64,000 bases of DNA, taken from the IMG/VR virus record IMGVR_UViG_3300025706_000022, positions 1-64,000 of that record. The stretch is one strand, 5' to 3'. The stretch is from a virus. Lineage: Duplodnaviria > Caudoviricetes. Within the stretch, counting starts at the first letter, position 1. Each line of letters starts with the position of its first letter. The notes beneath the pieces are model-generated. The model worked only from the letters and a program-made list of their open reading frames with translations. It ran no database searches and was not told where the DNA came from. Positions 3,786 to 51,634 of this stretch are shown here, piece by piece. A program made the translations under genes and the position numbers.

Positions 3786-5831
3786 TTAGAAAAGAATTTT
3801 AACAACACGAGTAAAACTACCACTAATACGACAGATCAGGCTATTACGCTGAGTACTAGAGAAGCCAAGACCACTAAGCTGGCGGTCTGACTCTTCAGTG
3901 CTCATCTTACTACCAACCATTTCCAACACCTTGCGGTGCTGATCAAGGTCTGGCTTAAGAAACTCGTTGAGGAAACCACGAGCCTTATCCTTATTGATAC
4001 AACCATTGATCATAAAGAAGTAGTGCTTATTACCCACCTTGTAGTCATCCCAGAAGTTAGGGGACAACATAATAGAGCTTACTTCTTGGAAGGTATTAGT
4101 AGGAATACCCCATGCATCACGGGAGGAAACACTTGCTTCAATCAATGGCTTAATCATCACATCGGTCTTACCATCAATCTTAGTTACAGCAATCTCTGCT
4201 ACAGCGATGTAACCACCTTGAGGTACAGCCTTATCATAAACAAGATGATAAATCTTACCAAGGACTTCTATTTCAACTTCAAAACCTACACCCTGAGAAC
4301 GCTTATTGAAGTTATTCACACGCAGTGTATAGATACCTGACCGCATAGTCTTAATTTTTTCGTAGAAGATGTTCTCTACAGGATGCTCCATCATACCATT
4401 GACGCCATTTGCATCTACATCAAGCATACCGCCATTAGGGGATTTACTACCACGATATGATGCGTAGTTAATACGACGACTACCTGGCTCTTGCATATGA
4501 AAATCAAGGTCATCTTTATATTCCCAAGCAAGGCGACAGCACACATCACCAGTTACATTACCACCTGCTTGTTTAACTCGTTCCTTGATTGAATCAGCAA
4601 AGCCACCGTTATATGACCAGGAAAACTTATTAGGCCACTTGAATAGATCAGGGGCAGTCGAATTCTTGGCGGTAATAAGACTAACCAAGTTACCTTGATG
4701 TGCGTTATCAATCATTACCTCCACCTTCTTTGCAGAGGGTAGGATATGTTCAATAAACTGATCAATTGTTACTTCATCAACTTTAGACAGTGACTTAGGC
4801 GCTTTGTTACCTGCCTCATTCAGCATACTATCAAACACATCAGTACTAAGATGCTTTACTGAACGATCTGCAAACAGAATATTGTTCACAGTAATATCGT
4901 TAATTGTTGCATAACGACGCTCTAGAGCAGAAACAAGACCTAGCTCTTCAAGCGTCTCTTTTGCCTTCTTAATCATTGATGCAGTTACAAGAGCAGTAGG
5001 TCGCTTATAATTAGCTGGTGCAACCTTTACTTCGTACTTCTTTACAGCGTCTTCAAGAGGTACATTCTCAGAGAGGTCTACTAGCAGAGTACCAATTACA
5101 CTATTACGAATACGAGCTACTGCAGAATTGGCAGTAAGCACTCGTTCCCATACAAATAGTTTAACATCCACACTATCTTGCTCAGCATATTGCTCAGCAT
5201 CAAGATATGCACATTTAAGGTTATAAAACTCCCTTACATTATGCAAATGCTCTGCACCACGATATAGAGTGTTTTGTGTAATGAGTTCCATTACAGTTTC
5301 AAGTGCATCTTCAGTGATACTATTTAATGCACGATACATCAAGTCAAAAGTAGACCGATGCTCACCCAGTTTAGAGTCAATCATGCCTTTACTACAGAAA
5401 TGCTTACCTAGAATATGTACAAAGAAGTGCTCCCAAGTAGCAATACCACCATTAACAAATGATTCAAATGACCTATTGGCACCAGCAGTCCTCTCAGTAT
5501 GCAAGAAGACATTTGAGATTTCACTGCTCTTAACAAGGGCAGACAACGCATCTGCAACTACTTGATAGCCACCCTCAGCCTGCACATCCCAAATACTAAC
5601 TACTTTACCATCAATAATTGCTACAGCACCACCAATAGCTCTAATGAATTGTTTACAACAGTTACAATCATGTTCTGTACGCTGACGATAAAGAGGGTTA
5701 GTACCTTCTGGGAATGAGCCAAGATAAGTATCCCATAATGCATCCTTAGATACAGCTACACGGAACATAGGATAGTCGCTCATACGGCCAAATTGGACTG
5801 CAACAGCTTGTTTAAAATCAATAAAGTTCAT
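3786..5831 (-). CDS. Large conserved phage protein with N-terminal HDCxCC motif and C-terminal YfaP/DUF2135-like beta domain
   Basis: RTEHDCNCCKQF; DDLDFHMQEP...LDVDANG...VENIFY...G.YTLRVNNF. Confidence 0.6.
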   Translation of the reverse strand: MNFIDFKQAVAVQFGRMSDYPMFRVAVSKDALWDTYLGSFPEGTNPLYRQRTEHDCNCCKQFIRAIGGAVAIIDGKVVSIWDVQAEGGYQVVADALSALVKSSEISNVFLHTERTAGANRSFESFVNGGIATWEHFFVHILGKHFCSKGMIDSKLGEHRSTFDLMYRALNSITEDALETVMELITQNTLYRGAEHLHNVREFYNLKCAYLDAEQYAEQDSVDVKLFVWERVLTANSAVARIRNSVIGTLLVDLSENVPLEDAVKKYEVKVAPANYKRPTALVTASMIKKAKETLEELGLVSALERRYATINDITVNNILFADRSVKHLSTDVFDSMLNEAGNKAPKSLSKVDEVTIDQFIEHILPSAKKVEVMIDNAHQGNLVSLITAKNSTAPDLFKWPNKFSWSYNGGFADSIKERVKQAGGNVTGDVCCRLAWEYKDDLDFHMQEPGSRRINYASYRGSKSPNGGMLDVDANGVNGMMEHPVENIFYEKIKTMRSGIYTLRVNNFNKRSQGVGFEVEIEVLGKIYHLVYDKAVPQGGYIAVAEIAVTKIDGKTDVMIKPLIEASVSSRDAWGIPTNTFQEVSSIMLSPNFWDDYKVGNKHYFFMINGCINKDKARGFLNEFLKPDLDQHRKVLEMVGSKMSTEESDRQLSGLGFSSTQRNSLICRISGSFTRVVKILF

Positions 5832-12586: not shown

Positions 12587-12973
12587 TCAGATGAAATTAT
12601 CTGATTTGATACCCATGTGAGCCAAGCTAATATCTGCATCAATATGTGGTATGATAGCAGTATTCATTTCAATAAGCTTACGTAGTTTATCCTTAAGCTT
12701 CTCTGTTTCCTTTTGTTTAATACCAATAAAATCACGTTTATTTAAATCCTCAAGTATAGCCTTATACTCCTTAGTACTGCTCTTAAGTCTAGAAGATAGC
12801 TTTTCAAGACCCTCTAATGTTTGAATCTCCTCATTGGATGAAAGATGCATATCATTAATAACCTCTTCTTTAGTCATACCATACGCATCTGCAATAGCAT
12901 CTACTTTAAAGTATATCTTACCATCTATTACTCCAGTAAACTTATCTGGCATACCCACTCCTATAGAAAACAA
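12587..12973 (-). CDS. Hypothetical protein with possible KilA/Bro-like N-terminus and coiled coil
   Basis: IDGKIYF....IA.AYG; heptad-rich C-terminus. Confidence 0.5.
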   Translation of the reverse strand: MFSIGVGMPDKFTGVIDGKIYFKVDAIADAYGMTKEEVINDMHLSSNEEIQTLEGLEKLSSRLKSSTKEYKAILEDLNKRDFIGIKQKETEKLKDKLRKLIEMNTAIIPHIDADISLAHMGIKSDNFI

Positions 12974-15105
12974 TACTCAGCCTTAGCAACTTCTAGTATG
13001 TTGAAATTACCAGTCTTTACTTCCAAATCATCAATACCCAACTGTTTAAGAAGATCACCAAGAGGGTTATTGTAATACAACATAATGAAACTACTTCTGA
13101 CGTCTTCATGTAGTTGCTCCATACCACCAGCTAATGTACCAAATGAATCATGTACAGTTACTAGTGGCTCTTTACAATAATGTGCAGTAAGCATTAGATG
13201 TGTTGCATCCATACTATGCACAATATTTGGTGGTGCTCCAGTCTTTTGTTTAGAAGGACTTTCGCGTTTATTGTTATTATCTCGAATAGATAATGACAAC
13301 GTATCATCGTAGTATGGGGCCTTGACCTTAGTTAGTTCACCAATACGATAATCTTGCACTACTGGAAAATTAACTATAGGGGTATTCCATTCCAAAGATT
13401 TACCTACATTACCTTTGCGTTTACCAGCAGTTTCAAATAACTTAAGTAGTGCTACACTGGTAGGCATAGCCTGTTCCATGGTATCGTACACAATCTGGCC
13501 TAACCAAATAGCCCAAGCCCTGTCCATGCCTTCTAAATAATCAATACCATGCTTAGGAGCGTCTTCAATAATCTGTTCACCAGCCCCGAAACGGGTTACG
13601 CCATAGACCATTGTCATAACCCCTCTCTTAACAAGCTTTCTACGCTCATTAGCTTCTTTTACTTTCTTCCAATAAATTGGTGCAGCTTCTTTTATATGAG
13701 CTTGATACTTATGCTTAAATTCCTTTACTTCTTCATATAAATCCTTAGTCTCATCCTTATCAGCAGAGTGTATAATACCCTTACGTAGCCTACTGACTTC
13801 TTTTATTATCTCTTCTAGCTTATCAACATTATCTACCTTCATCTCATTTATACGTTTCCATACAAACTCAGAGATATACTTATAAAGATCTTGAACAGAC
13901 TTATTAGCGCAAAGATTAGTATGATAAGCAGTTTCTTCATCTCTAGTTAAAGCTGAGAGATGTTGACTTCCATTGTTGCTTCCGTCTACATAGCATATTA
14001 ACCGAGACACAAACTTCTCTACATCCTCACCGCTAGCACGCCATTGCTGAATGAGAGCTATTTCGATACAGGCAGCTAGAAATTGCCAGGGAGAATCTGC
14101 ATCCATCCAACCAGTAAACTCATCTGGGTTATTAGCATAGTTTAAGAATACGCCCATATTATCGTTAGCCCACTCTACTCTTTGCTCTAATGATAATTTG
14201 TCAGATTTAACACCATAAGTGGTCTTACCTGCCCAAGTTGATGCTAGGGCATGCTTAATCCACTTTTCACCATGAACACCAAGCTCCTTACCCTCAGCTA
14301 GTAGTAATAGACTCTTAGCTAAGTCAGTACTTTGTTCATTTAGAAAGCCAGTAGCGGGGTAACAACGGCCTCTAAAATCGAAGAAGTATTGATGATAAAA
14401 GACCTTGCTCTGTAGCTCTATACCTAGGTTTATGATAGTCTCAGCAAGTCTTTTCTTTGACTCTCTAGCCACAGGGTTAGAAGACTTGTAGTACTCCTTA
14501 AACACCTTAGTATTATCCTTAAAATGCTTAAGAGCTACTGATAGAATATTAGTATTGATTACCCATCCTCTATTGAATAATTTATGCATCATTTCAATAG
14601 CCATAGGCGTACTCGCCTCAGTCAACCTAGCCTTGCTCCTCCTTATTAGCTTCTTAATTGGAATAGGGCATGGCGTAAATGTAGGCTTGATTGCTGCTGC
14701 TCTAGGCCTTTCATCCCATAGGGATTTAATCTTAGACTCTTCTATATTTACAAAGATACCTTCATTATCTTCAATAATAACTTCGAATAAACCTACTAAA
14801 GAAAAGCACTTTAAGAAGAAACATCCAGTTTTACCTGCTGCATCTGGGAAATTCTCAAAAGAACTACCTGACTGCTTTAAAATAGTTTCACCTACAGTAG
14901 CAACGATAACATTTACATTTGTATTATCAGCCATTAGATATGTAGCTATCATATCAAATGCTATATCTGTAAGACGACTGATGCTTACGCCACTCTCTTC
15001 ATTTAAAAAATCCAGGAGAGGTGATTCAAATTGATCATTAAATGTCTGACTTTCTACTGCTGTATACAGTATCTCCCTCTTCACAACAAATTCTCCATTT
15101 GACAA
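12961..15105 (-). CDS. Single-subunit (T7-type) DNA-directed RNA polymerase with short N-terminus (RNAP2)
   Basis: FDFRGRCY; motif A DGSNNGSQH; motif B RKLVKRGVMTMVYG; PNIVHSMDATHL; motif C VHDSF. Start may be GTG 15084. Confidence 0.95.
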   Translation of the reverse strand: MSNGEFVVKREILYTAVESQTFNDQFESPLLDFLNEESGVSISRLTDIAFDMIATYLMADNTNVNVIVATVGETILKQSGSSFENFPDAAGKTGCFFLKCFSLVGLFEVIIEDNEGIFVNIEESKIKSLWDERPRAAAIKPTFTPCPIPIKKLIRRSKARLTEASTPMAIEMMHKLFNRGWVINTNILSVALKHFKDNTKVFKEYYKSSNPVARESKKRLAETIINLGIELQSKVFYHQYFFDFRGRCYPATGFLNEQSTDLAKSLLLLAEGKELGVHGEKWIKHALASTWAGKTTYGVKSDKLSLEQRVEWANDNMGVFLNYANNPDEFTGWMDADSPWQFLAACIEIALIQQWRASGEDVEKFVSRLICYVDGSNNGSQHLSALTRDEETAYHTNLCANKSVQDLYKYISEFVWKRINEMKVDNVDKLEEIIKEVSRLRKGIIHSADKDETKDLYEEVKEFKHKYQAHIKEAAPIYWKKVKEANERRKLVKRGVMTMVYGVTRFGAGEQIIEDAPKHGIDYLEGMDRAWAIWLGQIVYDTMEQAMPTSVALLKLFETAGKRKGNVGKSLEWNTPIVNFPVVQDYRIGELTKVKAPYYDDTLSLSIRDNNNKRESPSKQKTGAPPNIVHSMDATHLMLTAHYCKEPLVTVHDSFGTLAGGMEQLHEDVRSSFIMLYYNNPLGDLLKQLGIDDLEVKTGNFNILEVAKAEYCFL

Positions 15106-17763: not shown

Positions 17764-17848
17764 TGGTGCCCGTAGTGGGGATCGAACCCACATGACTTTC
17801 GTCGCTGCGTTTTAAGCACAGTGCCTATACCAATTCGGCTATACGGGC
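17764..17848 (-). tRNA. tRNA-Leu (anticodon TAA)
   Basis: Acceptor GCCCGTA/TACGGGC, anticodon arm CTGTG-CT TAA AA-CGCAG, long variable arm, TTCGATC loop, encoded CCA. Confidence 0.95.
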
Positions 17849-45052: not shown

Positions 45053-48000
45053 TTAGCCTATTCCATAGAAGCCTTTATCATGCTTCCAAAAATCAGGCGG
45101 TATATCTTCTAGAATATCCTCAGCTTTGAGAATATCCTGTTCAGTCATAAGTCTTCCACCAACTTTACTTTTTCCAGCTATTGGAATAATACCTTTTTCA
45201 ATGGCCTCTTCCAAATACTGATCATAAAGCTCTTTAGGTAATCCACGCTCACGCAGAAGATCTAATGTAGCCTTTACTGTATTTTTCGTAACAGCATCAG
45301 CATACATTTTTCTAATAGCCGTCTTAGCCTTAATCATATCACCAGCATTAGTGAAGAAAGCCGAAATATTCAACAAAGGTCGTTAGTCTTTGCCCGTTAC
45401 TGTCGAGTTAGTTAATAATTCTTCCAAGTATTACCAATTCGTATTTGACGAATGGTAGAAGGGTGCGATCCAAATTCTACAGCTATTTCTGCATCTAACT
45501 TTCCATTTTTGATACATTCTCGTATATAAGGTACATCCTCTGCAGTTATCTTTCTAGTCCTAGGTGCACCATTATAACGACCAGGGATAGTCAGACCTAG
45601 ATGCTTCCAGTTGTCACCAATCCTAATAGCGTTTATAGATTGCCTAGTAACACCGTATTCATCTGCAATCTCTTGATCTTTTTTGCCAGCAAGCATTAAT
45701 TTAATTATAGTAGGTATTTCTGACTCTACTAATACCGACTCAACCCTATGTGAACCGCGTGGCATTAACCCAGTATCGTATGCGTGCTGAACATTTTCAC
45801 TGCGAGTTGCCCATTCTAGATTAATTACATGGTTATGTAACCTATTCCCATCAATATGATTTACATCTGATTTAGAAAAGGGATTTGGTATAAAAGCCTT
45901 TGCAACCAACCTATGTAGCTTTTCTGTGCGTCTAACACCATTGTATGATATATGAAACTGCCTATAACCACCTACGATATTACCTAATGTGATGCACCCA
46001 TTAGAGCCACAATATAGTCTACCATGGTTACTAATAGAATAGTTTGCATCACCAACTTGTTTCCATTCTTCTTGCATGTTTACTCCTTGTGCTCGACAGC
46101 ACTGCTGCATATTACTATGCAGACTAGACTATATCTTCAAAGTAAATACATGTATTTACGATGTCCCCCGTTTCCACTCACTTGAGTGTACTGGCGCAAT
46201 GCCATAGTCGTTACACCTTCCTTATTTCTAAGGATTGGCTCGGTATTGTCCTAACGAAGGAGTTTCACCGAATTAGAGGGATTTAACCACAACAAAATTT
46301 ATCGTGGATACTAGTTGTTTCTATACCATTACGCTTACCCCATAAAGCAAAGTTCTTAACTAGAGTAGCATCGTTAGAGTGATTGCCATTGACGGCATAT
46401 GCCGTTCTAGCAGACACTGCATCAGCTACTTCATTTATTTTATTACTCTTATTAACTAACTCTTCAAACCAAGTGGGATCAGTTTTATTATCTACTTGAA
46501 TAATATTAGTGATCCAGTTACCATCAGCATCCTTATAATTAAGCCTTTCCTCAAATCGTTGGGTATAATATTGCTCCAACACACTACCATCAAGGTTCAC
46601 CCAAGGCACATGTGTCCAACTCTTAGGTTGCTTATTGGGTAACCCCAACTCAGCTATATCAATATCTTTGTAAACATCACCCACCTGAAGCTTAATATCA
46701 AACTTCTTACCAGTAGGTCTATAGCCCTTGTCCTTAACCCCAAATAGTATATCAGAGATGGTACTATCGGGTTTATATCCAGGTATACGTTTAAGGATTT
46801 GTTCTCGATAAGATACCTTTGGATCTATTCCTAGTATCCAAGCTAGCACAGGATGAGGCTTAGCCCCTTCTTTATACTCACCAAATGCGGTTTTCTTCAT
46901 AAGGCTTACCCAATCAAACTCAGCTTTAGAAGGCTTTGCTGTTAACAGAAAGTCTTGTGCCAGCCTACCGAAGAACTTAGTAAAATCATTCAAAATAGGT
47001 ACACGATTAGACATATGCTCAGACATGATTGCACCTATCTGAGCAAAATCTTTGGGCGTAACTACTTCATCATAATCCCTAGTAAGCTTCTCTACAAAAT
47101 CCTTTGTTTTAGGATCAAGGAACCATAAGTCAGACATCAAGTCATCACCTGGCCTAGTTCCACTATCAAATATGTCTTTGACCTGTTTACGAAGCTGCAT
47201 TAGTTCGTCTGCAGTATCTTGATCCCAACGTGCTATTTTAGCAGCACGGGCAGAGATTTCACCCAATACAGCATCGCGTTCCTCAGCTTTAATTACTAAG
47301 ACACCATCATCTTTACCTAAAGCCTTAGCTAATTTCTTTTCTACATTCATGGTAGCAGTTCTCTGTCCGGCGCCGTATAGAGAGACCATGTTATGCGCTT
47401 TTGACAATGTGTTAACAAGGGGTCGTTAGTCCCCTGTCATAATTTATTAGTAGTTCTTCCAGGTATTTCCTCTACGAATTTGGTTTATGGTTGCAGTTGC
47501 TACACCAAACATAGGTGCAATATCGCAATCACGTAATGTGCCAAATAAGCTTCGAATAACCGGTATATCTTCTCCAGTTAACTTCTTAACTGGGCCATTA
47601 CCTATAATCGGCTGTCTTTCAATAAATCGCCAAGTACGGTTACATCGAATATCATCAATTGTATTTGGGGCCACGTTATACTTTTTGGCAAGAGTAATAT
47701 TTCTATCACCAGCCTTTAAGGCATCAATAATTTCATGAACTTCTGTTTCTAGAAGGATATGCATATAGCTACCTTCTCCAGAAGCAATTAACCCTAATTT
47801 TACAGCATGCTCATTATTCTCTGTAGGAGTACACCACTCTAGGTTACTAGACTTATTATTAAGCTTATTACCATCAATGTGGTTAGCCCAGGGCTTACCA
47901 TCTACCCTAGGTATAAAGGCCCTAATAACCAATTTATGAACATCGATAGTTATCCTATCCTTACGAGAGGTAAACTGTATACTAACTTGTAAGTATCCTC

Positions 48001-51000
48001 TAGCAGTAATGAAGGGATTAAGAATGAAATCAGTGCTATTGTTGCGAATACGCCCCAGATTGCTGACACTATACATGCCTTCTGTGTCTGGGATAATACG
48101 AAATTCTTCTGTCATAATGACTCCATGGGTGTGTAAATTATGCTGCATATTACTATGCAGATCAGACTATATCTTCAACAAACAATGTTTGCTGTCCCGC
48201 GTTTCCACTAGACTTCTAGTGTATGAGATTCATAATCCGTTCTGGACCGTATTCTCTAGTCGTTGAACCTTCCAAAGAGTCCCCTCTAAGGCTTGGCTGC
48301 TGATTGTCCTTTAACGAAGGAGTTTCCAGCAATTAACGGGATTTTACAAGGCCACAAGTTTAGCCTTCCTTAAATCCTTCTCGCTTAGCCCCAATCTTTC
48401 ATTAAGCTTTTTAAACCTAGGATCATTAAAGGTCATAGAAGCAATCTCGTCATAGAGACGCCGCTTCTGGTTAGTAGGAACAACATTACTAAGTTCTGCT
48501 AATTGCTTATTCTTAGTAGACAATGCAATAATCTGAGCACCAGAAGATGAAGCATCTTGCTCTAGAGCTACTTTAATCATATAATTATCAAGTGGAGTAA
48601 GATCTTTGTAACTGCCACCTAAAAATTTATCAATGCGGTATTGTTCAAGGGCAAGCCTAAATAACTTTCCCTGTTCTTCAGCATCCGCCATCTGAACGAT
48701 CTTAGATTCAAGGATATCACGAATATCCTGAGGCTTTTGTCTTTCTATACGTTTACCTAATAAAACAAGATCAGCACGCCATTTATCTGCAATCTTCTGC
48801 CTACCAGTTTGAGAGAGACCATTAAAGCGTCCTTCAAACTCATCACTTAGGCCACCTAAGAAACCACCTATCTGGTCTTGTAGGTTATAATATCCATCAA
48901 TACCTAAGGGTTTAGCTTCTGGTGTATTTAAGAAAGGACGAAAGGACTCACCAGATTGTGGTCCAATGTAGCCGCTATCATATATGCGACCGCGATGATC
49001 AATGAAAGCGTGATTACTAAAAGACATATCGTTCTTAACATAATGTTCCATAGCCTTAAATCTATCGTATGCATCACCACGAGCAGTCATGTGATCACGA
49101 TAATGATTCAAATCATTAAAATACTTAGCCTTACCCTTATCGTCTTGGAAATCCAATAACTTTCTCGTAAACCCATAAAACTCAGGATCTACTTTATACT
49201 TACTATTGCTATACCAATTAAGGGCATCTGCTAATGGTTCGTCAATTAGCTCTGCAGGTATTTCAGTGAAACTACTTGAAGATGTAATTGGTATTTGTGT
49301 ATCATATCCGCCCTTAGCAAAATATGTTTTGAACCCAGGTTTAATATATAGTTGGTTATCATATCTATTATTCACACCAATACGATAGCCTACATCGATA
49401 GCACGATTAAGGTATGAGTAGTGCTTAATACGAGCATCGGTAATCCTAAGATTTACACTAAATGTATCGTAGTATTGACCAAAGTATTGACCACTCATAC
49501 GACTACGCATACGCCTTTTCTTAACACCAAAAGTATCTAGTGTATAAAATCCTACTTTTTGAGCATAATCTAAGATTTCTACACCTGCATCATACCATTC
49601 TTTTTTAGATCCACGAAAATTAGTAGTATTAAATAGATCTCTTCCTAATTCAATGGCTAGTTGATCCCTATCAGGGGCATCATCCATTGCTAACCGTTTA
49701 GCAAACCTCAAATAGAACTGCTGAGTTTCAAACTTACCTAATCCCTGAAATACTCTACGCATTTGAAGTTTCATAGGTAATTGTGTTTTTAAGAAGATAT
49801 CTACTGTAGAACGTAACTGTAGTGCTATAACGGGTAATTGTCTAGCTTCCCATAGATTACGCTCTTTAATATTAGCAATAAAATTCTTGCCCAAATCATC
49901 TAATTGTATAGGGCCAAGAACAGGATCAAGATACTCACCTTGCTTAATCTTGTAGAAGAAGTCAGAATTATTTCTTAACTGTGTCTCAATAAACTCTGAC
50001 ACGTTAGTAACACTATTCTTCATTTCTGAGTTAAGAACAGCCTTAAGATTACCCCAAGGCTTTCCTTGTTTACGAAAACGCTCAAATGTTACACGAAGAT
50101 TATCAGTGACAACTGCAGCCTCATTCATGCCTACAGACTTCTGTATTTCTATCTTGAAATCTTGTAGGAACTTCTTATCATCTGCGGTTAATACTGTGCT
50201 TTCATCAATAAGCCTAACAGCGCGTTTATCAGCAGCCATATTAGGTTGATAGATGCGGGCATCCTCTCTACGCTTAGTAATAGGATTATATATTAGCTGA
50301 TCTTCAGTTGGAGGGCTGTTTAGAACCCTATTCTTAGTACCAGCCTTTACATGAGGTAGAATACCACGATAGTTAGTAACACTTAAAGTACCATTTAGCT
50401 CACCAGACTGTAGTTTATAATACTCTACGAGTTTGCTAACGGCCTCTTTATCTCTAAGTATTTCAAGAGGGGATGTATATCCCAGTGTAAGTGTGTCCAG
50501 TCTTTCTTTTGCATTCGCGAATACTTTACTAGTAGCTTCTACGCTACCGTTATAACCACCTGCTGTATTATTATCACCAGTTAGTAGCTTAAGCTCATTG
50601 AGACCTACACTAGCACCCTTAGGTGTTATAAACCTCTCAGCTGTAAGCTCATTATTTTGGAACATCTTAAGGCGATGCATATCTCCTAGATGCATTAGCT
50701 GAATTCTATCTGGTTGTTTCTTTAACCAATCATTATAAGAAATAGTGTCATAAGGTGTTCCAGTAAAATAACTAGAGGCATACTTATCATAGGCTTCAAT
50801 CTCTGCTTCCGACATTCCAGCTGTATTACGGGCTCTAGTGGCTCTTACAGAATCAACTTTTGCTAAGTCTGCCCAAGCCTTAGGAACAGGTATTGTAGTA
50901 GACCTACACCTATAATGTTGTGGTGGTAAATGACCAGTATCAGAAACTGGATAGATATTTCCATCCATATATCTGCATACTGGAGTAGTTCTAGTGTCTA

Positions 51001-51634
51001 ATACCGCGGCGTATTGGTATCCTTTCAAGTATTTGCTATTCTCTGCATATACTTGCTGGTCTACTTGTGCATACACACTAGTAATCCCGGTAATAACAAT
51101 ACCTTCACTATGTACACGAGTAAGATTAAACGTTTTAGATACACGTTTAATCATTTGTTCTTCAGTTAAGCCTTCAGCTAGGCCGCCTCTAATAGCAGCC
51201 TCTATACGCTTACGCTCATTTAAGCCAATGCCTTTCCAACCTTCTGCAAGAGTCTTATTAGCATAGAGAGGTTGTGTTAATACTATCTCGCTAGCAATAG
51301 CACGAGTAGGTCTCTCAGGCTCAAAGAAATCTCTGAATGACTTATTGAGAGTATCTAAAGAACTTACTTGTGCTTGATTACCAAACTCAATAAAACTTTT
51401 TGCATTATGGCGATACGCTGTTTCTGTAAATCGCCTTATCTCTGCATCTGTTGCAGGGCTGATCGGCATTTCTTTTGAATAGTTTCCAGGGAGTATTGCG
51501 AGCATTCTAGTTTCATGGTCATCAACTAATGCTAATGTTTGTGCGGTAACTCGCTCTGTATAAAGTCGAGTCATAGCAGCATCATGTATGGTTTTATCAC
51601 CAGCAACCTCGACCGCTGTCTTTTCTACTTTCAT
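45053..51634 (-). CDS. MuF/SPP1-gp7 head protein fused to T7-type RNA polymerase; join(48362..51634, 46301..47404, 45053..45361), 1561 aa
   Basis: MuF motifs AVLD.RTT..C...DG and PPQHYRCRS; RNAP DHRGRIY; motif A DASSSGAQ. Splicing restores motif B RKA|SKAHNMVSLYG and motif C IHD|AF. Confidence 0.9.
45362..46300 (-). mobile_element. Group I intron 2 (IA-type), inserted in RNAP motif C
   Basis: P1 CCACGAU/GUUGUGG with U.G at the splice site; P3 TCCCTC/GGGGGA; P4 TCGGT/ACCGA; P7 GACTA/TAGTC; AAGATATAGTCT; terminal G. Confidence 0.93.
45412..46077 (-). CDS. Intron-encoded NUMOD4/HNH homing endonuclease
   Basis: LHRLVAKAFIPNP...VNHIDGNRLHN...NLEW; two C-terminal HTH-like repeats; start ATG 46077. 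Confidence 0.92.
   Translation of the reverse strand: MQEEWKQVGDANYSISNHGRLYCGSNGCITLGNIVGGYRQFHISYNGVRRTEKLHRLVAKAFIPNPFSKSDVNHIDGNRLHNHVINLEWATRSENVQHAYDTGLMPRGSHRVESVLVESEIPTIIKLMLAGKKDQEIADEYGVTRQSINAIRIGDNWKHLGLTIPGRYNGAPRTRKITAEDVPYIRECIKNGKLDAEIAVEFGSHPSTIRQIRIGNTWKNY
47405..48361 (-). mobile_element. Group I intron 1 (IA-type), inserted in RNAP motif B
   Basis: P1 AAGGCU/GGCCUU with U.G at the splice site; P3 TCCCGT/GCGGGA; AATTGCTGGAAA and AATCAGCAG; TCAACGACTA; AAGATATAGTCT; terminal G. Confidence 0.94.
47447..48115 (-). CDS. Intron-encoded NUMOD4/HNH homing endonuclease
   Basis: VHKLVIRAFIP...NHIDGNKLNN..SNLEWCT..EN..HA; two C-terminal HTH-like repeats; start ATG 48115. Confidence 0.92.
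   Translation of the reverse strand: MTEEFRIIPDTEGMYSVSNLGRIRNNSTDFILNPFITARGYLQVSIQFTSRKDRITIDVHKLVIRAFIPRVDGKPWANHIDGNKLNNKSSNLEWCTPTENNEHAVKLGLIASGEGSYMHILLETEVHEIIDALKAGDRNITLAKKYNVAPNTIDDIRCNRTWRFIERQPIIGNGPVKKLTGEDIPVIRSLFGTLRDCDIAPMFGVATATINQIRRGNTWKNY

Follow-up and report, generated by a model that had tools for sequence, protein, structure and literature searches.

A probable mobile group I intron behind the motif C aspartate codon of a MuF-fused, T7-like phage RNA polymerase gene

Among phage genes for polymerases and for nucleotide metabolism, endonuclease-bearing group I introns within conserved motifs are classical (T4, SPO1, Twort), and multi-intron phage genes are exemplified by Twort orf142 and nrdE and by T4 td/nrdB/nrdD. 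Both the presence of endonuclease-carrying introns in the catalytic motifs of phage polymerases and the presence of several introns in one gene are already well documented. A very high intron density in conserved core genes was reported for crAss-like phages of the Zeta group (PMC7886860), and the same paper lists a reference for an intron in a multisubunit RNA polymerase gene of AR9. [quoted passage not shown] This intron contains gp210, an I-HmuI-type HNH endonuclease that cuts the intron-less PhiKZ allele and gives a competitive advantage (Birkholz et al., bioRxiv 10.1101/2023.09.30.560319).

The present locus was found in a 64,000-nt stretch of phage DNA (positions 1 to 64,000 of IMG/VR record IMGVR_UViG_3300025706_000022, referred to as the window). 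As in PhiPA3, an intron with an I-HmuI-type endonuclease lies immediately after conserved Asp codons of a gene for a phage RNA polymerase that is packaged in the virion or, here, presumably so. The PhiPA3 gene, however, encodes a subunit of a multisubunit cellular-type polymerase of a jumbo phage, whereas that in the window, known from sequence alone, encodes a T7-like single-subunit polymerase fused to MuF and has two introns, in motifs B and C. The multisubunit polymerases of jumbo phages and giant viruses are of the two-barrel type with an NADFDGD motif, as opposed to the polymerase encoded here, whose T7-like palm is of the right-hand type and bears motifs A, B and C. The SPO1 and SP82 introns (I-HmuI and I-HmuII) are similar in being phage IA-type introns in a conserved polymerase motif with an HNH endonuclease, which is a nicking enzyme in SPO1/SP82, but their host gene is a DNA polymerase gene, and the ORF of the SPO1 intron sits in another peripheral loop of the ribozyme whereas that of the window intron is placed after P9. 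With the multi-intron phage genes, the locus shares several putative self-splicing introns in one essential gene, all of which would have to splice for function; the host genes differ. The basic phenomenon is not new, and it is for the host gene that no earlier report was found in the literature searched. In that literature, in which absence is no proof, no group I intron in a T7-like single-subunit RNA polymerase gene was encountered and nothing specific was found on MuF-RNA polymerase fusions; in the DSS3_VP1 paper, an RNA polymerase goes unmentioned. Catalytic-motif introns of polymerases, known in DNA polymerases and multisubunit RNA polymerases, would now extend to the single-subunit RNA polymerase family.

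The host gene is situated on the minus strand between the portal and scaffold genes and consists of three exons. Exon 1 (48362..51634, 1091 aa) carries a MuF domain (aa 143-248), the sequence DHRGR, motif A (DASSSG) and the first half of motif B; exon 2 (46301..47404, 368 aa) opens with SKAHNMVSLYGAG, by which motif B is completed, and closes with TSIHD, the first half of motif C; and exon 3 (45053..45361, 102 aa plus stop) starts with AFFTNAGD, completes motif C and encodes the C-terminus. Each exon is a multiple of three in length, and together they form a 1561-aa frame without internal stop, the junctions of which (marked ^) read LRKA^SKAHNMVSLYGAG and TTSIHD^AFFTNAGD. The first of the two introns (group I, 47405..48361, minus strand, 957 nt), one of two RF00028 matches within the window (48143-48413, 99.7 bits), encloses an HNH endonuclease ORF (47447-48148) and has AAGGCU/GGCCUU as P1. 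An intron in another catalytic motif of the same polymerase had been part of the original prediction and is seen in the split of motif B, RKA^SKAHNMVSLYG, where the expected ligated RNA would contain AGGAAGGCT joined to TCAAAAGCGCAT.

The second group I intron had been predicted at 45362-46300, and both a match to RF00028 and a gap-free junction in comparison with intron-less homologues, from which its boundaries were taken, support this position, at which it occupies 939 nt of the minus strand. Across the junction, the homologues read TSTVHDAFFTSA in gp49 of EBPR siphovirus 1 (50% identity over 434 aa), TGTIHDAFFTNV in gp108 of roseophage DSS3_VP1 and GTIHDAFFTNA in P0002, the closest metagenomic relative, none with a gap. 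Exon 2 finishes with the codons ACT AGT ATC CAC GAT (T S I H D), of which GAT occupies 46303-46301 immediately before the first intron base at 46300, and exon 3 opens at 45361 with GCT TTC TTC ACT (AFFT). Thus, the 5' splice site lies directly behind U46301, G45362 is the last base of the intron and removal of the insert gives TSIHD^AFFT, as predicted, in the place of IHDSF of T7 RNA polymerase, with which phmmer aligns IHDAF. The expected ligated RNA would contain AGTATCCACGAT joined to GCTTTCTTCACT (GAU^GCU). Within 40 nt of the proposed 3' site, 45362 was the only G that yielded IHD^AFFT without gain or loss of a residue relative to the homologues; other 3' splice sites, which gave frameshifts or extra residues inside the invariant HDAF, were rejected. 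An intein was also rejected, as the insert is out of frame, contains stops and has a ribozyme core.

The opening bases of intron 2 are AAAUUUU GUUGUGG UUAAAUCCC. The P1 that had been proposed, CCACGAU/GUUGUGG, was read exactly, with the last seven nucleotides of exon 2 (46301..46307, minus strand, part of the I-H-D codons) able to pair with an internal guide sequence at 46287..46293 (minus strand), which was identified both by reading the sequence and by RNAalifold, and with the final U of the exon opposite G at the cleavage site. No P2 was evident in intron 2, and P1 leads straight to P3. An in-frame UAA (46283..46285, minus strand) at the boundary of P1 and P3, five codons past the splice site, ends translation of unspliced RNA; the corresponding ORF (46283..47407) closes with IHDKFCCG and the stop at 46285-46283, just as anticipated for the frame that would be read without splicing.

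The RF00028 match of intron 2 (46105-46368) scored 89.2 bits, the gathering score being 50, with an E-value of 1.9e-21 for the whole window and 1.1e-22 in a local search, which is far beyond chance. The Rfam model misplaced P1 upstream and aligned P3 to P9 with high posterior; together with RNAalifold, this alignment places the ribozyme core at 46105..46282 (minus strand). The core was read as P3 (UCCCUC 46281-46276 / GGGGGA 46169-46164), P4 (UCGGU 46271-46267 / ACCGA 46244-46240), P5 (UCCU/AGGA) with the loop UCGUU (46257-46253), P6 and P6a, P7 (GACUA 46209-46205 / UAGUC 46131-46127) and, after P8, P9 (CUGCAUA-GUAA-UAUGCAG, 46122-46105). Two further hairpins between GACUA and GGGGGA, UGGC-AUUGC-GCCA and CACUC-AAGU-GAGUG, which are inserts in the Rfam alignment, correspond to P7.1 and P7.2 and mark the predicted fold as IA-type.

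Comparison of intron 2 with intron 1 and four introns at other sites on other contigs (six family introns in all) showed P7 to be invariant. For this set RNAalifold predicted 36 pairs, found compensatory changes at 21 and recovered P1, P3, P4, P5, P6, P6a and P9. The U.G pair at the splice site was kept in all five introns whose P1 falls in the aligned stretch, and exon and guide strands were noted to covary (CCACGAU/GUUGUGG, AAGGCU/GGCCUU, CACGAU/GUCGUG, ACGGU/GCCGU and CAUGGU/GCCAUG). From a comparative standpoint, such tracking of each exon by its own guide argues well for the use of these P1 helices. The 50-nt tail that follows the endonuclease ORF of intron 2 includes a hairpin (CAAAG/CUUUG, 45374..45392, minus strand), 11 nt upstream of the 3' splice site, with the conserved loop ACUAACGAC. 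The stems of this hairpin are compensatory between introns (GGGG/CCCC in intron 1, CAAAG/CUUUG in intron 2, UGCAAU/AUUGCA in relative L012), and the loop is complementary to that of P5, AACGA to UCGUU in intron 2 and UAACG to CGUUA in intron 1. Judged by complementarity only, a contact between these loops may dock the 3' end, an ORF of about 670 nt away, back onto the core.

Given these elements, splicing of intron 2 would be expected to begin with pairing of CCACGAU in the pre-mRNA, i.e., the last seven exon bases in the I-H-D codons, with the guide GUUGUGG, whereupon a guanosine held in P7 would attack just past the U of the wobble pair; G45362, at the intron terminus, would then dock and the exons would be ligated at GAU^GCU, giving the invariant IHDAF of motif C. 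On unspliced RNA, the UAA five codons into the intron would halt ribosomes ahead of the core. A decayed intron that no longer splices would instead leave the polymerase gene a broken relic and the phage reliant on another enzyme, for which a candidate exists in a second, intact single-subunit RNA polymerase gene in the window (12961-15105, PF00940, 258 bits). The weak P10 of intron 2 (approximately three A-U pairs) and the fact that splicing itself is predicted from sequence agree with decay, which is nevertheless considered very unlikely because every core pairing is intact, as are the invariant sequences of P7 and J8/7, at 89 bits, because the guide fits the exon with a U.G pair and because the endonuclease ORF is intact. 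In addition, the three exons are open and conserved with invariant catalytic residues, and values for exon 2 against P0002 of 0.21 for dN and 2.2 for dS (dN/dS approximately 0.1) indicate purifying selection on the exons. The same phage sequence also occurs on several contigs, the intron-bearing exon products of the window gene recurring on 6-7 of them. With a high degree of confidence, 45362-46300 is taken to be an IA-type group I intron, functional and mobile, within a MuF-fused, T7-like single-subunit RNA polymerase gene; that it splices and homes, that its endonuclease is active and that the polymerase is packaged are inferences.

Mobility would depend on the intron-encoded HNH homing endonuclease (45412..46077, minus strand, 221 aa), the likely start of which is the ATG at 46077, preceded 5 nt upstream by AAGGAG (46088-46083); the longest frame begins at 46110, inside P9. 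The protein matched Pfam HNH_3 at 31.5 bits (cut-off 24.8), with HTH matches below threshold, and matched I-HmuI (PDB 1U3E) over its full length (residues 4-170, E 2.2e-10), the HNH motif being kept. Encoded between P9 and the terminal hairpin, this I-HmuI-like enzyme would introduce a nick or a cut close to the motif C codons when relatives with an intron-less allele co-infect, and repair from the intron-bearing allele would copy the intron in. Such a target would be hard to mutate away because it encodes catalytic residues.

The distribution of introns among relatives bears on this proposal. P0002 has neither intron 1 nor intron 2, and in EBPR siphovirus 1 motif B (NMV^) is interrupted by an unannotated intron and motif C by none. 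Relative L012 has one intron only, exactly at IHD^AFF (763 nt, Rfam 100.9 bits, P1 CCACGAU/GUCGUGG); its exons 2 and 3 are 77-78% identical in amino acid sequence to those of the window gene and its intron core is 66% identical. In relative L005, an intron at the same IHD^ site is accompanied by at least two further interruptions, and the P1 exon strand CCACGAU is found at this site in L005 as well as in L012. In relatives L006 and L007, introns (Rfam 62.9 and 65.7 bits) lie 7 nt upstream, after the second base of the codon for Ile or Val of IHD. Altogether, the gene family is interrupted at approximately nine positions around motifs B and C. Among 240 cluster representatives, a non-random sample in which the end of a contig may account for some of the breaks, motif B is where 39 end (RKA^, RKAAKA^, NMV^, NMVTF^ or LYG^), while 23 end at AVNG or NHS, eight at T[IV]^ and two at IHD^, and the recurrence of the same positions points to a family-wide hot spot. 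When closely related phages differ in occupancy in this patchy way, homing is the usual reading. A megablast search of the window gene against GenBank phages gave no match.

Intron 2 might alternatively splice and yet be immobile, its endonuclease inactive or kept for another role and the intron inherited vertically. Only three lineages with an intron at the exact site of intron 2 were found among the approximately 240 cluster representatives, an exact-pattern scan of IMG/VR for the P1 region of same-site introns gave no further copies, and cleavage by the endonuclease is a prediction. (Three matches to the P1-region pattern in metagenome contigs were set aside as unrelated to the polymerase gene and without an Rfam match.) Immobility is nonetheless thought unlikely in view of the intact ORF with its full-length I-HmuI match and retained HNH motif, the patchy occupancy and the different combinations of core and endonuclease at the same site. 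Thus, the endonuclease of intron 2 is just 42% identical to that of the L012 intron at the same site and 40% identical to that of intron 1, while the closest to it (62%) is that of L007, in another phage and at the site 7 nt upstream. The core of intron 2, on the other hand, is most similar to that of intron 1 in the same genome (70-72%, with one 38-nt stretch at 95%), which indicates that core and endonuclease have different histories. Such reassortment at one site, together with the location of the closest endonuclease elsewhere, indicates ongoing exchange and favors a mobile intron. The approximately nine insertion positions, exon-tracking guides and reassorting cores and endonucleases constitute a data set for the retargeting of introns and homing endonucleases.

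Identification of the host gene as a polymerase gene was not evident from its separate exons. When these were scanned singly against Pfam, exon 1 matched only Phage_Mu_F (PF04233, aa 143-248, E 3e-13), exons 2 and 3 were without any match and RNA_pol (PF00940) was matched by none. The family is large, however, and all 25 intact relatives that were aligned, which are 49-62% identical to P0002, itself 72% identical in amino acid sequence to the window gene, matched both PF04233 and PF00940, the latter with a best E-value of 6.5e-14. The polymerase assignment therefore rests on intact relatives, motifs and the fold of a relative. The motifs occur in the order DHRGR, DASSSG, RKA^SKAHNMVSLYG (with K at R+4 and Y at K+8) and IHD^AF, and H-D-A-F, the Asp of motif A and the Lys, Tyr and Gly of motif B were invariant in the alignment of the 25 intact relatives. 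By phmmer, GTIHDAFFT of P0002 aligned with ALIHDSFGT of T7 RNA polymerase, which places the Asp of motif C at D812, one of the two metal-binding aspartates of the T7 enzyme; NGNHSND of P0002 likewise aligned with NFVHSQD, and DHRGR with DWRGR of T7, this DxRGR motif being also the place of a weak match of exon 1 to T7 RNA polymerase. Phmmer searches of PDB with single exons gave marginal T7 matches only (E 0.17), and the family profiles A3 and A4 gave none to T7 in PDB, their sole match being to a small archaeal regulator-like protein, in the region that precedes the polymerase. A 50-column hhalign match between A4 and the second RNA polymerase of the window, at a probability of 3.6%, was meaningless.

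Evidence for the fold was obtained from an AlphaFold (AF2) model of relative P0124 (628 aa, C-terminal part, 67% identical to exon 2, pLDDT 75.5), in which H525-D526 is located at the turn between two short strands, where the beta-hairpin of motif C has its tip. In a Foldseek search of PDB with this model, T7 RNA polymerase gave the best E-value (1.9e-6), all those listed of the 24 matches at E ≤ 0.001 were T7 or mitochondrial RNA polymerases and N4 RNAPII appeared lower in the list (E 0.007); the TM-scores were low (approximately 0.35), so that the fold class is supported rather than fine detail. From the T7 alignment, the invariance of motif C and the fold of P0124, it is concluded that intron 2 directly follows the codon (GAT, 46303-46301) for the catalytic Asp of motif C, as the original prediction had held. 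The position of the break also bears on whether the polymerase might be split, i.e., made as separate polypeptides, with no RNA splicing and with the endonuclease gene free-standing between their coding regions. T7 RNA polymerase is known to tolerate some splits, but here the break would come directly after the catalytic Asp, at the hairpin tip in the P0124 model, exon 3 has neither an ATG nor a ribosome-binding site at AFFT, its sole in-frame start being a TTG in the intron tail, and the endonuclease gene has a full ribozyme core beside it. Translation of the exons as separate polypeptides is thus regarded as extremely improbable.

Since motifs B and C are both missing from exon 1 by itself and exons 1 and 2 together stop at the Asp, it would follow logically that both introns, that in motif B being related to intron 2, must splice before active polymerase is made. 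The products of unspliced and half-spliced mRNA (1096 aa and 1466 aa) would all keep the complete N-terminal MuF head-incorporation domain. On a speculative reading that is judged improbable, the efficiencies of the two splicing reactions would therefore set the shares of capsid slots taken by active and by dead, truncated polymerase; the introns, far from neutral, would provide splicing-gated control of the dosage of virion polymerase or a MuF-only isoform for assembly, and the endonucleases could, as with PhiPA3 gp210, disable the virion polymerase gene of intron-less competitors. The polymerase is presumably delivered with the virion. When the two introns are overlooked, the gene is annotated as three unrelated ORFs ('head protein', 'hypothetical') and a MuF-fused, presumably injected RNA polymerase is missed. 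Misannotation of this kind was noted in the published genome of EBPR siphovirus 1.

Comparison of the intron 2 endonuclease (window 45412-46077) with the endonucleases of two other contigs, L007 (2089-2757) and L012 (2349-2846), indicated 62% identity with the L007 protein, which belongs to another phage and lies at a site 7 nt upstream, as opposed to only 42% identity with that of the L012 intron, which occupies the same site as intron 2. The nearest relative of the intron 2 ribozyme core, on the other hand, was intron 1 of the same genome (70-72%), and the two cores were 95% identical over the 38 nt from P7' to P9. Judged from these sequences, the evolution of intron 2 is mosaic, its endonuclease and core having different nearest relatives.

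The P5 loop (UCGUU or CGUUA; window 46253-46257 in intron 2) was complementary to UAACGA, the conserved loop of a hairpin immediately 5' of the 3' splice site (window 45380-45384). This pair of loops, considered in intron 2 and at the equivalent places in intron 1 and L012, could form a kissing interaction that would dock the 3' end of the intron across the ORF. Covariation between the two loops was not seen since both are conserved.

Metagenomic members of the MuF-RNAP family (P0001-P0253) number in the hundreds and are for the most part annotated as 'SPP1 gp7 family head morphogenesis protein'. Approximately 30% of the representatives seen were cut, at about nine recurrent positions located in motif B, the NHSxD region and motif C. 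Several interruptions were noted within a single RNAP gene fragment of L005 (Logan SRR27827412 contig, positions 1-2864), which contained at least three. An HNH ORF lay upstream of the codons for motif B, NMVTF| was the site of an intron (Rfam, 82.1 bits) with a 102-aa ORF after it, and another intron began at IHD|.

In EBPR siphovirus 1 (JF412302.1), the published annotation lists gp47 as 'head protein', gp48 as 'HNH endonuclease' and gp49 as 'hypothetical'. A group I core was read from the sequence at 4140-5000, where ...CAGAACATGGT is followed by AAUUCAGAGG...CUGAGCCAAGCC...GGUGCAACGACUA, so that motif B of a MuF-RNAP gene is split by an unannotated intron. Rfam did not report this intron at the gathering threshold, probably because an ORF interrupts the core. 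A sequence-pattern match was also noted in an unrelated contig (VNIW01000309.1, 8358-8384, minus strand), in which AAAAAUUUGUCGUGGAUAAAUUCAGUUAAUUGCCGGG, directly after ...GCA AGT CAC GAT within a 923-aa ORF, looks like P1, P3 and P4 of this intron family; this site had no Rfam match at the gathering threshold.

The window also contained, on the minus strand, an uninterrupted gene for a second single-subunit RNA polymerase of 714 aa (12961-15105; PF00940, 258 bits). Thus, the phage encodes two T7-like RNA polymerases, one fused to MuF and the other free. Three tRNA genes were identified with Rfam on the same strand, at 798-871, 1357-1430 and 17767-17848.
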